Shown: positions 1,147 through 48,014 of the stretch, piece after piece
How the letters are laid out: each line of letters begins with the position of its first letter
How positions within the stretch are numbered: the first letter of the stretch is position 1
Source: Bacteroidota bacterium
GTDB lineage: Bacteria; Bacteroidota; Bacteroidia; UKL13-3
Reading direction: 5' to 3'
Assembly: GCA_030680835.1 (NCBI GenBank)
Contig: JAUXUD010000004.1
Span: 32,400-96,399, forward strand
Length of the DNA: 64,000 nucleotides
Notes under the pieces: model-generated
Seen by the model: only the letters and a program-made list of their open reading frames with translations
What the model was told of the DNA's origin: nothing
Databases searched by the model: none
Position numbers and translations under genes: made by a program

Positions 1147-2079
1147 TTATTTATTATTCAATTCTTCAAGACTTTGCTTTAAATATAAAATCATCATTTC
1201 TTTTCGGTAGGCTCTTGAATAGTAATCATTGTCTACAATTCTTGCTTTTTTAACCGCATCCTGAATGAGTGTTTCTGAGACATCCAGCATGCCTTCAACG
1301 ATTACGGGTTTTGGATCAATACCCCCTATAACTATTTTTATTTTCCCGTTTTGAACCAATGAAACGGCGGTGGTTAACGAGGTAAAATCAACCGCTTCAC
1401 GCGGACGTAATTTTTTGAACACTACTTTAAAGCTGTTGTCAAGAGGTAACATAATGTTTTTGATAATGGCCGTTTTTGAAAGATTTCTGGGGTTGATTCC
1501 ATCTCCGGTATAAATACTTTCCAATGGAATAATTTTTAAACTTTTTTCATCAATGATCTCAAGCTGTGCGTTCATGCTGATCAGTACCGGGGCAGTATCG
1601 GATACAAATTTTGAGAAACAGGCTTTGGTTCCACCGGTTGCGATGCATACTTCCCCATCGCATTTCAGACAGTATCCAACCGACTCACGCCACCAGGCAC
1701 TCTGGTTAAAATAGGTACATCTGTTTTCACATAAAATATTTCCGCCAAGGGTTGCTGTTTTTCTTAGGATGGGTGAAGCAACTTCATTCGCCGCTTTTAA
1801 TAATGCAGGAAATTGTTCTTTAATAATTTCATGTTTTTTAAGATCATCCAGACGAATTAATGATCCTATTTTCAGGAAATGAGTATCAGCATGCACTTCC
1901 TTTAGTATGGCGATACCGGAAAGGTCAATCAAACTTGCTGATTCATCATTTCCCTGAAACCTGTTTACCAGCACATCGGTTCCGCCTGCAATGTATTTAA
2001 AGCTTTGTACATGTTGCTTTGCCAGTGAAAGCGCTGCTTCAATGCTTGTTACCAGATGATATTTATTTTCAGCCATCAT
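1147..2079 (-). CDS. Xanthine dehydrogenase family FAD-binding medium subunit (CoxM/XdhB/HcrB-like) with a Cys-rich inserted loop
   Basis: AGGTDVLV FAD-binding motif. Cysteines at residues 117, 121, 137, 140, 145 and 154 fall within a ~40-residue stretch (LCENRCTYFNQSAWWRESVGYCLKCDGEVCIATGGTKAC) that ordinary CoxM/XdhB subunits lack. Start overlaps the upstream gene by 4 bp. Confidence 0.7.
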   Translation of the reverse strand: MMAENKYHLVTSIEAALSLAKQHVQSFKYIAGGTDVLVNRFQGNDESASLIDLSGIAILKEVHADTHFLKIGSLIRLDDLKKHEIIKEQFPALLKAANEVASPILRKTATLGGNILCENRCTYFNQSAWWRESVGYCLKCDGEVCIATGGTKACFSKFVSDTAPVLISMNAQLEIIDEKSLKIIPLESIYTGDGINPRNLSKTAIIKNIMLPLDNSFKVVFKKLRPREAVDFTSLTTAVSLVQNGKIKIVIGGIDPKPVIVEGMLDVSETLIQDAVKKARIVDNDYYSRAYRKEMMILYLKQSLEELNNK

Positions 2080-31664: not shown

Positions 31665-33371
31665 ATGAAAAAGATATTTTCCAACAAAATTTTTCTAACC
31701 AGTCTCATATTAATTATAGGTATTTTTATCGGCTGGTTATTCTTTCATTCACCAAACAAGATTGAAAACAAACCGGGTCAATCCGCAGAAACTGTCAGCG
31801 AAAGCATTTGGACCTGTTCCATGCATCCTCAGATAAGGATGCATGAAGCGGGTAAATGCCCTTTATGCGGAATGGATTTAATTACAGTCAGTCAGAGTGG
31901 TGGAGCTACATTGGATCCCGAATCTATTCATATGACAAAGGAAGCAGCTCAGTTGGCGAATGTGCTTACATCGGTTGTTTCAAAACAAAATCCGGTTAAG
32001 GAAATTCGTCTTTATGGTAAAGTTATGGCAGATGAAAGGCTGTTGCAAAGTCAGGTATCTTATTTACCCGGACGCATTGAAAAACTACTTATAAACTATA
32101 CAGGTGAAACTGTGAGAAGAGGACAAACCCTGGCCGTTATTTATTCACCAGATCTGGTAACGGCGCAACAGGAATTACTTGAAACCGCAAAGTCTAAACT
32201 CGTACAACCTGCATTATACGAAGCCACAAAGGATAAACTTCGTCAGTGGAAAATAAGTGAGAAACAGATTGCATCCATGGAGTATTCGGGCAAAGTAAAT
32301 ACCGATTTTGAAGTGTATGCAAACACAACAGGTATTGTAACCGCAAGACGTGTAAACAACGGAGACTATATTTCGCCGGGTACGGTGCTGTTTGAAGTAG
32401 CAGACCTTTCACGGGTGTGGGTTGTATTTGATGCATACGAAAGTGATCTTCAATTTTTGTCATTAAATCAAACCATATCCTTTACGGTTCAGGCAATACC
32501 CGGTATAAAATATACAGGTACTATTACCTTTATTGATCCGGTAATGAACACCACAACCCGTGTTGCAAGAGTTCGGGTAGAAATTGACAACAAAGACGCC
32601 AAATTAAAACCGGAAATGTTTGTTAATGGTATTGTGCGTGCGAACCTGACTGCATATAAAAACAAGCTGATTATTCCACGCACCGCAGTATTATGGACAG
32701 GAAAAAGATCGGTGGTATATGTAAAACAAAGCGGAAGCGATGAGCCGGTTTTTAAAATCAGAGAAATAGAACTCGGCACGCAGATGGGCAATAGTTATGT
32801 TGTGGAAAGTGGTTTAAATGAGGGTGAAGAAATAGTAACACAGGGTGCATTTAGTGTGGATGCTTCTGCACAGCTCGAAGGAAAGCCGAGCATGATGAAT
32901 CAACAAAGTGAACAGGTTGTTTTACCCGGAATGGAAATGCAACTGAGCACATTATTTAACGAATATATTAAATTAAAAAATGCATTTGTGCAAAGTGATG
33001 TAAAGAAAATAAAGCAAGCGGCAATGGAATTTCAACCCGCACTTGCAAAAATAGATTTGAAACTTCTTAGCGGGGAAACCCATACAAAATGGTTTGAAAT
33101 TTCGGGAAGTATGGACAAACAAGTCAAAAGGATTATATCTTCGGATAATTTAGAAGAACAGCGAAAAGCATTTTCGGATTTCAGTGATTTGTTTTACAAA
33201 TCTGTAAAGGAATTTGGCTTAAAGGAAGGCACTGCTTATTATCAATATTGCCCGATGGCTGATAACGATAAAGGAGCCTATTGGCTCAGTGAAACAAAGA
33301 CAATCCGCAATCCTTACTTTGGTTCAAAAATGATGAATTGCGGGGAGACGAAAGAAACTTTGAAGTATTAA
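31665..33371 (+). CDS. cusB: Efflux RND periplasmic adaptor (CusB-like) with N-terminal metal-binding CxxC pair and a C-terminal DUF3347-like extension
   Basis: 568 aa. WTCSMHPQIRMHEAGKCPLCGMDL, then a membrane-fusion-protein core and C-terminal YYQYCPMADNDKGAYWLS. Confidence 0.75.
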   Translation: MKKIFSNKIFLTSLILIIGIFIGWLFFHSPNKIENKPGQSAETVSESIWTCSMHPQIRMHEAGKCPLCGMDLITVSQSGGATLDPESIHMTKEAAQLANVLTSVVSKQNPVKEIRLYGKVMADERLLQSQVSYLPGRIEKLLINYTGETVRRGQTLAVIYSPDLVTAQQELLETAKSKLVQPALYEATKDKLRQWKISEKQIASMEYSGKVNTDFEVYANTTGIVTARRVNNGDYISPGTVLFEVADLSRVWVVFDAYESDLQFLSLNQTISFTVQAIPGIKYTGTITFIDPVMNTTTRVARVRVEIDNKDAKLKPEMFVNGIVRANLTAYKNKLIIPRTAVLWTGKRSVVYVKQSGSDEPVFKIREIELGTQMGNSYVVESGLNEGEEIVTQGAFSVDASAQLEGKPSMMNQQSEQVVLPGMEMQLSTLFNEYIKLKNAFVQSDVKKIKQAAMEFQPALAKIDLKLLSGETHTKWFEISGSMDKQVKRIISSDNLEEQRKAFSDFSDLFYKSVKEFGLKEGTAYYQYCPMADNDKGAYWLSETKTIRNPYFGSKMMNCGETKETLKY

Positions 33372-45036: not shown

Positions 45037-46515
45037 ATGCGTAAATTAATACTGCTTATATGTTTCATTTTATTTGTATGCAATTTTTCCAATGCACAAT
45101 CAAACATTAGCTGGAATACAAGCATGAATATTGCAACGAGTTCGTCGGGCAATATGCACCCCCGCATGACGCTGGACGGAAAGGGTAATCCGCTTGTAAT
45201 CTGGGGCAGGATGTCGGATGGCGCAGTTTTCATTTCACGCTGGACGGGAACTATGTTTGCTACGCCTGTAAAGTTAAATCCTGCATGGTTAAAGGTTGCC
45301 TCGGCTTCGTGGATGGGACCTGATATTGCTTCTAAAGGGGATACGGTTTATGTAGTTGTAAAACGAACCCCGGAAGCAGCCGATACCAATTATATTTATA
45401 TTATGCGTTCATTTGACGGAGGCATGTCATTTTCTGCGCCGGTGCGTGTAGATAATATTGGTGACAGTATCTCACGTTTCCCAACGGTGAGTGTGGATGC
45501 TTTGGGCAATCCACTTGTGGCTTTTATGAAATTCAATTCTTCATTTCTGGATTCAAGATGGGTGGTTGCAAAATCAAGCGACTATGGCGTAAGTTTTTCA
45601 AAGGATGTTAAGGCAAGTGGTTATAGCGGAGCAGCCGCAGAGGTATGCGATTGTTGCCCGGGTGCCATTGTAACGTCCGGTTCTGTTTCGGCGGTGGTTT
45701 ACCGCGATAACCTGAGTAATATTCGCGATATATGGACAGGAATTTCAAGCAATAACGGCATCTCATTTAACAGAGGTTTTGCGGTAGATAAAACAAACTG
45801 GTTCCTGCAGTCTTGTCCGGCCAGTGGTCCGGATGCGGTGATTGTTGGAGATTCATTGTACACTGTTTTTATGAGCGGTGCAAGCACAAAAAATCGCATC
45901 TATTTAAGCAGGACTTCAATTAGCACAGGTATTGTAAATTCGGTTTCAACAACTAGTAGCAACATTGCTTCATTGAACCAGCAGAATTTTCCGCGTATCG
46001 CCACCGATGGGGTTGCGGCAGCTATTGTATGGCAACAAAGTGTTGGCGGTGTAGCACAGCTTCCAGTTACTTTTACAAACGATATTAGCAAAGGATTTCC
46101 GCTTGTTTATGATACCGTTGATTTGGTTAATATAACCAATATGGATATTGCAATGGCCAACGGTAAAATTTATGTTATATGGGAAGATGACAATTCGGGA
46201 ACTGTAAAATTTCGAAGTGGAACCTATAAGCCATTGAATACAGGAAACGCCAAAATAGTAAAAAGTGAACCGATTGAATTCAGATGTTTCCCGAATCCGG
46301 CGAGTGATGTTTTGAATATCGTTTCTCCTGTTGAAGGCCGGTATGTTTTAAACCTCTTTAATGCCTTGGGTGAAAAAGTATTTACAATGGAATCAGAATC
46401 CAGCCAAAGCATTGAATTGGCAAATTTTCCTAAGGGTATTTATTTTGTTCGGTTGATCCAAACGAATGATATAGAAAGCACCCAGGTGTTCACACAAAAG
46501 ATTATTAAGCAATAG
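45037..46515 (+). CDS. BNR (sialidase-like) repeat protein with T9SS C-terminal sorting domain
   Basis: Repeated S-x-D-x-G-x-S-F motifs (SFDGGMSFS, SSDYGVSFS, SNNGISFN) and a Por tail (FRCFPNPASDVLNI...GIYFVRL). Confidence 0.65.
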   Translation: MRKLILLICFILFVCNFSNAQSNISWNTSMNIATSSSGNMHPRMTLDGKGNPLVIWGRMSDGAVFISRWTGTMFATPVKLNPAWLKVASASWMGPDIASKGDTVYVVVKRTPEAADTNYIYIMRSFDGGMSFSAPVRVDNIGDSISRFPTVSVDALGNPLVAFMKFNSSFLDSRWVVAKSSDYGVSFSKDVKASGYSGAAAEVCDCCPGAIVTSGSVSAVVYRDNLSNIRDIWTGISSNNGISFNRGFAVDKTNWFLQSCPASGPDAVIVGDSLYTVFMSGASTKNRIYLSRTSISTGIVNSVSTTSSNIASLNQQNFPRIATDGVAAAIVWQQSVGGVAQLPVTFTNDISKGFPLVYDTVDLVNITNMDIAMANGKIYVIWEDDNSGTVKFRSGTYKPLNTGNAKIVKSEPIEFRCFPNPASDVLNIVSPVEGRYVLNLFNALGEKVFTMESESSQSIELANFPKGIYFVRLIQTNDIESTQVFTQKIIKQ

Positions 46516-46605
46516 GATCTATTGAAAGTCGGTTATTTATAGTCTGTGTTTTCAAATATAACATTCTAATCGAACTAATAATTTGTTACAATTGATTGTT
46601 TTTTT

Positions 46606-47210
46606 TCTTTTTGCTTGATCAAAAAGAAACAAAAAATCAAGACTTATTTCTGCACCTTGCACTTGTAAAAAAGAAATGTTTTGCCACGCAGCCCAAGCCG
46701 CAAGGCCAACCGTTGCGACTGATAGGCCTTGCTCGAGGGCCGCTTGCACAAACCAGCCGCACACATTTCTTTTTAACAATTGCTGGCGGCACCGAAATAG
46801 GTCGGTCCTTAATTTCCTTTTGTTTAGGTGGTAAAAATTAGGAGGCATTAATAACATTTTTCTTGCATAATAACGCTATCAAGTAATTCAATCTATTAAA
46901 TTCGGTTTGAATAATTTTTTAGGTTCCACCAATAACCCTACAATTCATATAGTGCATTGACTAAAGGGAATTGTTCAAATTTAGAAGTCTTCAGGACCGA
47001 CCTATTACAATAACGCCTGCAAATGTTAAAAGATTGGCCAGTAAATAATCATTCAATTAAAGCAAATGTAGCAGACCTTGAGCAAGGCCTCTTAGTCGCA
47101 TCGATTGGCCTTGCGGCTTGGGATGCGAGCCAAGGCCAAGCTTTTTTACATTTGCCAGTTAATGTAATAAGTCTTGATTTTTTGGGTACCTTTTTGATCA
47201 AGCAAAAAGG
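46606..47210. mobile_element. Non-coding foldback / MITE-like element: ~200-bp imperfect inverted arms (46606..46808 and 46994..47210) around a 185-bp spacer
   Basis: Hand alignment of the left arm with the reverse complement of the right arm gives matching blocks: ctttttgcttgatcaaaaag, aaaaaatcaagacttatt, tgtaaaaaag, cccaagccgcaaggccaa, aggccttgctc, aataggtcggtcc. No transposase ORF. The mirror-image ORFs on both strands are artefacts. Confidence 0.6.
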
Positions 47211-47426
47211 TACAAAATAATCAAATGTCACAAATCATTACTTTATACGAAATGTCACTTCGAAAGCCATAAAACAAATTTACTCAGCATTAGTTCAAAC
47301 TATTGAATAAATGGACATACCCTAAATATGATTTAGAACGTTACTAAATAAGTGGCACTCAACATTTTGGTTAGGAAATCAAATAAAATTATATATACCT
47401 TAGTTCTTTATTAAAAGTATTGAAAC

Positions 47427-48014
47427 GTGAAAAAACTAAAACCTACCTATCTTCTCCTTATACTTTTTGCAACTTTTTCCCTGCACAACTGCAAAAAGGA
47501 TAACAACAATACCAAGTGCGGAGGCGATAAATATTATTATTATTTAAGTGAGCCAGCTAAATCCAAGGTGCCATATTCAGGAACGGATACACTTGTTTTT
47601 GTCAGCAACAATCATGATACCGCAGTTTGTATGGGACAAGGGAAAAAACAATTTTATGTCACATCATCCTTTTATGCAAATCCTGATTGTCCTCCAAATA
47701 CCGATTACTATGAGGCTTTTAATTACAAGTTTATAGACAAAAACGATAAGTTAAATTTAGAAATTAATTTATATAAAAATGATGGATATGTTTCTGAAGT
47801 GATGGATATGAACATCAATTCAACCAGATTGTATCCGATTAATTTAATTTATATGTATGAGTGGTATTATAATGATTCTGTATCAACTAATATGAGACAA
47901 TACAAAACGTTCAAACTAAATTTTGGATTAGGAAATATCGTACATTATAACTTGATGAAAGGAATAATACAAATTCAATCTAAAATAAATGTCTGGACTC
48001 TTTCTGAAAAATAG
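47427..48014 (+). CDS. Hypothetical lipoprotein
   Basis: Lipobox-like N-terminus (LLILFATFSLHNC). No domain recognised. 195 aa. Confidence 0.4.
   Translation: MKKLKPTYLLLILFATFSLHNCKKDNNNTKCGGDKYYYYLSEPAKSKVPYSGTDTLVFVSNNHDTAVCMGQGKKQFYVTSSFYANPDCPPNTDYYEAFNYKFIDKNDKLNLEINLYKNDGYVSEVMDMNINSTRLYPINLIYMYEWYYNDSVSTNMRQYKTFKLNFGLGNIVHYNLMKGIIQIQSKINVWTLSEK

Follow-up and report, generated by a model that had tools for sequence, protein, structure and literature searches.

The 64,000-nt stretch of Bacteroidota bacterium contig JAUXUD010000004.1 analyzed here (contig positions 32,400 to 96,399; hereafter the window) contains a 695-bp inverted repeat at positions 46561–47255, the two arms of which are 83% identical. 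We regard this element as probably an old and likely immobile two-unit member of a MITE-like repeat family (MITE, miniature inverted-repeat transposable element). The family is widespread in Bacteroidota and apparently undescribed.

The body of the element consists of two diverged, tail-to-tail copies of one non-coding unit. In the mechanism we propose, the window copy would have come by the same route as its relatives of the L052 and L101 types (see below), namely cut-and-paste by a transposase acting in trans that leaves 8-bp duplications, and would have decayed since. The hairpin body was presumably kept because it acts in cis, in single-stranded form. It may be a transcribed RNA, given that the CUUGAUUUUUU following the long hairpin on the opposite strand would block read-through; alternatively, it may be a folded DNA signal for the mobilizing enzyme. 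The conserved module near the outer end of each unit may act as an RNA pseudoknot, a single-stranded DNA signal or a terminator.

Architecture of the inverted repeat

Gapped alignment of 46560–46830 against the reverse complement of 46975–47255 gave a mean column identity of 83%, with indels of 2, 5 and 7 nt. Within it are three gap-free inverted segments: 46630–46744/47070–47184 (115 nt, 79%), 46573–46636/47180–47243 (64 nt, 81%) and 46771–46812/46990–47031 (42 nt, 81%). The preliminary description of this region had located the arms correctly but made them too short, as the similarity continues for ~45 nt further on each side; outside these limits, an alignment of the flanks does no better than one of shuffled sequence (local score of 16 versus a shuffle mean of 19.9). 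It had also noted a non-repeated core, which is indeed present but measures ~172 bp instead of the 185 bp given. Each of the shared blocks that it gave is matched exactly twice in the 64 kb, once per arm, against 0.07–0.14 matches expected by chance. Among them, the outer 20-mer CTTTTTGCTTGATCAAAAAG is found at 46607–46626 in the left arm and 47190–47209 in the right arm.

Both arms bear mirror-image open reading frames (ORFs), which had been considered artefacts of the symmetry. We agree that they are non-coding, because the arm indels are not multiples of three, and because the amino-acid identity in shared frames is, in our reading, about that of neutral DNA divergence; coding arms were therefore ruled out. 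As the preliminary description had stated, no transposase is encoded: neither a transposase nor a recombinase domain was detected in the ten flanking ORFs. An invertible promoter (inverton) was also rejected, since promoter-like sites occur at chance level (5 versus 4.6 expected), the −7 motif is not enriched and the ten flanking ORFs lack a recombinase domain.

Each arm is a copy of a ~255-nt unit that folds independently, so a single foldback with 200-bp arms, as pictured earlier, does not hold. The unit is composed of a leader, a P1 hairpin, an A-rich linker, the hexamer ATCAAG, an imperfect hairpin of 165–175 nt (termed X) and GGTCC, in this order. P1 is a U/A-rich hairpin of 10–11 bp with the invariant core CTTTTTG-CTTGAT-CAAAAAG. 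In minimum free energy (MFE) folds, the left arm alone reached −75.3 kcal/mol (z −5.6) and the right arm alone −82.3 kcal/mol (z −6.7), both with the same predicted layout of a short hairpin followed by the long imperfect one, and the opposite strands of the arms folded equally well or better. The base-stem duplex of X is also more stable than in shuffles, at −22.4 versus −13.8 kcal/mol in the left arm and −25.6 versus −12.7 kcal/mol in the right arm. Compared arm against arm, the 60 consensus pairs show six double-sided and two single-sided changes, with none broken, and a GCAA tetraloop is kept in both arms.

Relatives of the L052 type are bona fide MITEs

Among related loci, L052, L055, L113, L130 and L056 carry elements that are 79–90% identical to one another, lie within unrelated flanks and have sharp ends. 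Those in L052, L055, L113 and L130 are 693–713 bp long with 30-bp terminal inverted repeats (TIRs; GGCTGTATTTTATTTTGATGTGCTGGAAA and its near-complement; TIR GGCTGTATTTTATTTTGATG). Exact 8-bp target site duplications (TSDs) flank the copies in L052 (TACATACC), L113 (CATCTTAT) and L055 (ATCATGTT), and the 709-bp copy in L130 has an approximate TSD only (ATAAAAATA versus ATAAAATA). A second type, represented by L101, spans 502 bp with the TIR GGGTGTACGACAAAT and the TSD TTTTTTAA, and contains a single unit; an exact TSD was thus found in four of these five loci (L052, L055, L113, L130 and L101). The same type occurs at L044:3102–3215, which matches L101:3156–3657 (TIR GGGTGTACGA.AAAT) and has lost the ~320-nt long hairpin, with the first 14 nt of its 5′ arm left in place.

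The interior of the L052-type elements comprises ~65 nt, a module, a hairpin, a central hairpin closed by GGCCGGTCCCT/AGGGACCGGCC, an inverted hairpin, a diverged inverted module and again ~65 nt. This is the layout of the window element, at nearly the same size. The L052-type relatives are bona fide MITEs, a class that is very abundant in Bacteroidota and has been catalogued in bulk (PMC11602168). Taken as terminal inverted repeats, the arms of the window copy keep their identity to its outer limits, and the copy is small and has no transposase gene. Moreover, two Logan contigs of the source sample SRR13727518 (L228 and L002), which carry the genes flanking the element, end exactly at the modules, at 46606 and 47203, and neither includes the sequence that separates the modules. 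Such ends are expected for a multi-copy sequence and suggest further copies in the source sample.

Of the three candidates put forward in the preliminary description, a MITE or foldback relic fits best, as judged from the relatives with their TIRs and 8-bp TSDs. The TSDs it proposed to look for are exact in L052, L055, L113 and L101, but not in the window copy, and the conservation is confined to the outer module of ~45 nt instead of extending over the arms. A hairpin-forming RNA, the second candidate, fits in part, in that the stem covariation and the loop-tail complementarity described below are RNA-like, whereas Rfam matches and promoter enrichment are lacking. For the third candidate, a recombination hot spot, no specific evidence was found.

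Several observations weigh against assigning the window element to the MITEs. The window copy has no TSD (flanks CAAATATA versus CACTTCGA, with no better register) and no sharp terminal repeat beyond the arms. A possible terminus at 46542–46552, which matches the L130 end at 10 of 11 positions, was rejected, as the outer flanks are dissimilar and no TSD is present. For its own long-hairpin subfamily, no further copy was found in one-genome-per-species data, and the two arms and the distant L046 are its only representatives. Nor was an enzyme found to go with the family: the 147 neighbouring ORFs hold 176 Pfam families, none of them in more than three ORFs; no autonomous partner is present among these ORFs or between distant module pairs, which enclose ordinary genes; and TIR scans of IMG/VR for such a partner gave chance hits only. 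Clean TIRs with TSDs were seen in only two subfamilies of the 91 testable instances. Several subfamilies are dispersed as single units, 96–97% identical, with limits exactly at the P1 foot and the long-hairpin foot and without TIRs, which is not explained by TIR transposition. Finally, conservation is much higher in the subterminal module than in the TIRs, which is unusual for a MITE. The downstream lipoprotein homologues (38–56% identity) are non-syntenic, so that no empty orthologous site was available for a presence/absence comparison.

A near-invariant module with a covarying stem and a loop complementary to its tail

The homology between the window and its relatives is confined to a module of ~45–55 nt, and the remainder of the arms is not conserved across the family. 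The module consists of three covarying base pairs, CTTTTTG, the loop CTTGAT, CAAAAAG and then (C)AAAAAATCAAG. Its outer 20-mer CTTTTTGCTTGATCAAAAAG is present in at least 120 metagenome contigs, with at least 129 module instances, so the element is not without homologues, a point that the preliminary description had left to a search. These and the following family counts refer to metagenome contigs with the exact 20-mer, among the matches listed. The contigs range in GC content from 0.27 to 0.59, and some have SusE and TonB-receptor genes as neighbours, which fits Bacteroidota. In 99 of 123 instances, the tail, which the search pattern did not include, is found no more than 22 nt from the hairpin; in some further copies an optional hairpin of 40–55 nt separates P1 from the tail. 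IMG/VR does not contain the 20-mer, and BLAST searches of phage and plasmid collections gave no match to the element. The inner 18-mer CCCAAGCCGCAAGGCCAA matched 37 loci in one-genome-per-species data, all of them by chance and in unrelated, mostly GC-rich contexts.

The P1 stem shows signs of compensatory evolution, as the preliminary description had proposed to check. The three pairs flanking the 20-mer are paired in 93–95 of the 111 unique instances, against 48–72 in shuffles, and occur as several pair types. Over the stem, 70 double-change cells were counted versus 19.2 in shuffled data, a value reached in none of 500 shuffles. Diverged modules retrieved by a covariance-model search also have compensatory changes in the upper stem, such as CTTTTTT/AAAAAAG and CTTTTTC/GAAAAAG.

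In addition, the hexamer in the tail is exactly complementary to the P1 loop. At the single position that instance parsing leaves free, loop and tail covary (U:A 75, C:G 5, A:U 2, U:G 1 and other combinations 7). Variants include CTTGAA/TTCAAG in L117 and L090 and CTTGAC/GTCAAG in L075, L073 and a second L055 locus, and L134 is an exception. The complementarity moderately supports a pseudoknot or an alternative single-strand helix, the strength being limited because the signal sits at one position. A possible helix between the 5′ flank and the A-rich tail showed no covariation past the fourth base pair. Long-range pairing of the two tails within one RNA, which RNAalifold suggested for the L052 group, likewise had no support from covariation (covariation term +2.1).

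These features raise the question of whether the unit is primarily a structured RNA, be it a small RNA, one that acts in cis or a self-processing motif. It would be built from P1, a pseudoknot between loop and tail, and a variable hairpin, and MITEs and tandem arrays would serve only as vehicles of its spread. We consider this unlikely, although several features are in its favour. Besides the covarying stem and a loop-tail complementarity that covaries, at its one position, in several lineages, the optional insert hairpin is typical of RNA families, the GCAA tetraloop is kept in both window arms, class C units (see below) end in a stem and T-run on the unit strand, head-to-tail arrays occur, and the module is better conserved than transposon ends. 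However, the Bacteroidetes-type promoter −7 motif (TAnnTTTG) is not enriched upstream or downstream, and the orientation to neighbouring genes is not fixed. Searches of the window and 27 related loci with the Rfam 15 covariance models, including Flavo-1, pistol and other ribozymes, gave no match at the gathering threshold or at E values up to 10. The sole model to touch the module was Flavo-1, at 46584–46648 (+), with a non-significant score of 16.7 bits (threshold 42, E 2.4) that was not reproduced in related loci. The strand tests, weak as they are, point to the opposite strand, which has the more stable fold in 33 cases versus 18, and the P1 mispairs (12 C:A versus about 4 G:T) favour it as well. 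Furthermore, the pseudoknot covaries at one position only, and compensatory changes in palindromes can also come from hairpin-templated DNA mutation, so the covariation alone does not prove an RNA function.

Some further variation was seen around the module. L104:7303–7369 and L121:820–886 differ in that the loop of the 3′ module hairpin is inverted (CTGCTC versus GAGCAG), the elements being otherwise 84% identical, which looks like a flip-flop of the loop. In L052-type 3′ modules (e.g., L055:4400–4467) and in the minus-strand module of L154, CATGA[CT] loops co-occur with [AG]TCTAG tails; these changes are correlated but leave two of the six loop-tail positions unpaired, and are not Watson-Crick compensatory. 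An optional insert of ~52 nt (AACTTAGCG.AGCG..CTCATG...AAAAATAAG...) is present at L055:3938–3990 and, within a reverse-complemented element, in L052, L130, L113 and L056 (alignment columns 555–606). It adjoins the 5′ module in some MITE copies and, reverse-complemented, the 3′ module in others, and it is also found in the unrelated subfamily L148.

Hairpin classes and arrangements of the units

Across the family, the long hairpin always starts directly after AATCAAG, and its sequence falls into many unrelated classes. Class A hairpins (G[GA]CY...RGG[CT]CG followed by GTCC) are 127–219 nt long and have at least 28 members, including both window arms; further classes measure ~137 nt and ~52 nt. 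The window hairpin comes closest to the one in L046 (z 7.9), with hairpins of the L052 group next (z 4–5), and three base-stem pairs show compensatory changes between the window and L046. Units are found singly, in one head-to-head pair (L095) and in tail-to-tail (convergent) pairs with the modules 320–700 nt apart, the last at about 20 loci, where one module is usually more diverged than the other.

Tandem arrangements were also observed. L068:4040–5330 is an array in which a ~360-bp non-coding unit (module, 185-nt hairpin and spacer) is repeated head to tail 3.6 times. It has an msrA-GAF gene on one side and a gene for a TonB-dependent receptor on the other, and a tRNA lies at 2636–2717; the array begins mid-hairpin and stops just short of the next expected P1. 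L089:145–4343 has five same-strand modules in 4.3 kb of very AT-rich sequence, interleaved with thioredoxin and DsbD genes, and L073 has at least four module copies in 2.1 kb. L134 also has an array, with a second, diverged unit ~160 nt downstream. Class C units (L133, L134, L141, L146 and L152), compact at ~105–120 nt counted from where the module begins, finish with a GC-rich stem and a T-run on the unit strand and so resemble short terminated transcripts.

Dispersal as hairpin units is what would be expected if the elements were akin to repetitive extragenic palindromic (REP) sequences or to their inverted doublets (REPINs), in which a hairpin with a single-stranded tail serves as the site for an HUH (Y1) enzyme and units or doublets spread as single-stranded DNA. 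In the module's hairpin, the upper stem and the loop are indeed conserved and the foot covaries, and the 3′ tail, also conserved, ends where homology breaks off sharply; inverted doublets recur, single units are dispersed without TIR or TSD, and the loop is flip-flopped between L104 and L121. In addition, subclass 2.6 of the Bacteroidetes REP-associated tyrosine transposases (RAYTs) has ‘atypical secondary structures’ on its flanks, one of them a hairpin of 122 nt (PMC6006769). Nevertheless, we find this explanation very improbable: the module lacks a GT[AG]G foot, the published subclass 2.6 sequences are unlike it (PMC6006769), and no Y1 transposase domain is found among the neighbour families seen more than once. 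REP families are usually species-specific, whereas the module is near-invariant over the GC range of 0.27–0.59, and the elements with TIRs and TSDs show another, double-strand mechanism in at least two subfamilies.

A role at the level of the host, as a bidirectional terminator or insulator between the neighbouring genes, would be compatible with a transposon origin, but we give it little credence. In this scheme, the tail-to-tail pair would stop transcription from both sides, since on the opposite strand X is followed by CUUGAUUUUUUG. The hairpin base GGCY/RGCC is followed by a U-rich run, the units are biased to gene 3′ ends (20 between convergent versus 7 between divergent genes), and the opposite strand shows a slight excess of stability and tolerance of wobble pairs. 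On the other hand, a simple terminator scan, which scores stems of up to 20 pairs and thus none as long as X, did not flag X and reported only one minor site, a 165-nt hairpin far exceeds what a terminator needs, and about one third of the neighbouring genes are in the wrong orientation. Moreover, P1 lies beyond the U-tract and would be untranscribed, yet it is the most conserved part.

The module and hairpin together might instead constitute a self-propagating motif, either a new class of small RNA, self-processing or protein-recruiting and laid out like pistol, or a new hairpin-guided site for nicking of single-stranded DNA. Such a motif would account for head-to-tail arrays and for single units whose limits fall at the feet of the hairpins, as well as for the flip-flopped loop and for a module that hardly varies between hosts, and the MITEs with TIRs would then be only one carrier of it. 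We hold this to be distinctly unlikely, and prefer to view the window element as a decayed MITE-like copy.

Comparison with known repeat systems

The closest known kind is the bacterial MITE. Like bacterial MITEs such as Correia and ERIC/IRU elements, the present elements are 0.5–0.7 kb long, non-coding and intergenic, and fold back through inverted repeats; their copies are dispersed in unrelated flanks, and those of the L052 and L101 types have TIRs and 8-bp TSDs. They differ from MITEs in that the most conserved part is a subterminal 45-nt module common to subfamilies whose TIRs differ, the body is made up of long hairpins conserved in structure and variable in sequence, and the units also occur singly or in head-to-tail arrays. 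The window copy furthermore lacks a TSD, and no parent transposon was found.

With REPs, REPINs and bacterial interspersed mosaic elements (BIMEs), the family shares a short conserved hairpin core, an ability of inverted doublets to form one long hairpin (the window element and about 20 other pairs), an intergenic location often after genes, and compensatory evolution of the stem. By contrast, there is no GTAG/GTGG foot, the unit and doublet exceed theirs in length by a factor of 5–10, the module stays conserved between hosts that are very different, and a RAYT was not found in the vicinity.

Neisseria intergenic mosaic elements (NIMEs) are variable segments bounded by 20-bp palindromic dRS3 repeats. 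They resemble the present family in that a short conserved palindromic repeat bounds variable non-coding intergenic segments in arrays. However, sequence and host are different, the variable segment here is a long hairpin, and the repeat has an A-rich tail that complements its own loop.

In the pistol ribozyme, a 6-nt hairpin loop pairs with a downstream strand, an A-rich linker is present, and a variable hairpin comes directly after the pseudoknot strand. The module shares this order of elements, which we take as a lead and not as membership. It lacks the P2 helix and the conserved nucleotides of pistol and has no Rfam hit even at E values up to 10, and its P1 is much longer and its linker much shorter.

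If the element is only a MITE, it adds one more to a very common class and is mainly of value for annotation, in that it accounts for a gene-free gap of 0.9 kb, for spurious ORFs and for assembly breaks in metagenome-assembled genomes of Bacteroidota. Less ordinary is a module that is near-invariant in more than 120 contigs of very different GC content, is absent from Rfam and is joined to long hairpins whose shape is preserved while their sequence is not. When a signal in selfish DNA is this well conserved, it is usually the place at which an enzyme or a fold acts. Identifying its role could reveal how a large share of Bacteroidota intergenic repeats is mobilized, or a new RNA motif. The MITE idea itself had been raised before; what is new is how the units are built, the family they belong to and its conserved module.

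Feature coordinates and genomic setting

Positions and strands of the parts of the element in the window are compiled in Table 1.

Table 1. Parts of the inverted-repeat element, from left to right along the window
Feature	Position	Strand	Basis
Whole element: two tail-to-tail units and unique centre	46561..47255	.	Arm alignment; end of similarity; size near that of the 693–713-bp L052-group MITEs
Left unit, outer leader	46561..46603	+	Resembles right leader; family-wide homology begins only at P1
Left P1 hairpin, TTT-CTTTTTG / loop CTTGAT / CAAAAAG-AAA	46604..46629	+	Exact 20-mer; MFE fold; family stem covariation
Left A-rich linker and tail CAAAAAATCAAG; ATCAAG complements P1 loop	46630..46641	+	Loop-tail covariation
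Left long imperfect hairpin X (GACTTATT...AATAGGTCG), with GCC-GCAA-GGC side hairpin	46641..46804	+	Fold z-score; base-stem duplex; compensatory differences
Left post-hairpin GTCCT motif; AATAGGTCGGTCCT exact in both arms	46805..46815	+	GGTCC after X in many class A relatives
Unique AT-rich centre, ~172 bp, GC about 0.30–0.32, unrepeated	about 46816..46987	.	
Right post-hairpin GTCCT motif	46988..46997	-	AATAGGTCGGTCCT exact in both arms
Right long imperfect hairpin X	46998..47173	-	Fold z-score; base-stem duplex
Right A-rich linker and tail CCAAAAAATCAAG	47173..47185	-	
Right P1 hairpin, GTAC-CTTTTTG / CTTGAT / CAAAAAG-GTAC	47186..47213	-	Exact 20-mer; compensatory changes in lower stem relative to left
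Right unit, outer leader	47214..47255	-	Arm alignment and similarity limit

The element lies between a gene for a protein sorted by the type IX secretion system (T9SS; 45037–46515) and a gene for a small hypothetical lipoprotein (47427–48014), the latter situated upstream of hemA, hemC, hemD and hemE. It is these T9SS-protein and lipoprotein/hem genes that a host-level terminator would insulate from each other.

Two minor observations concern individual contigs of the family. L141 carries, at 1982–2050 (-), a DUF805 RNA motif (RF03081, 78.8 bits) on the same contig as the module but not adjacent to it. The contigs with class B units (L147, L149, L053, L145 and L151), through which the family may reach beyond Bacteroidota, are rich in other short tandem repeats, e.g., GATTCACTGATC.ACCGAT and CTCTTTCTGTTTC.CGCT.

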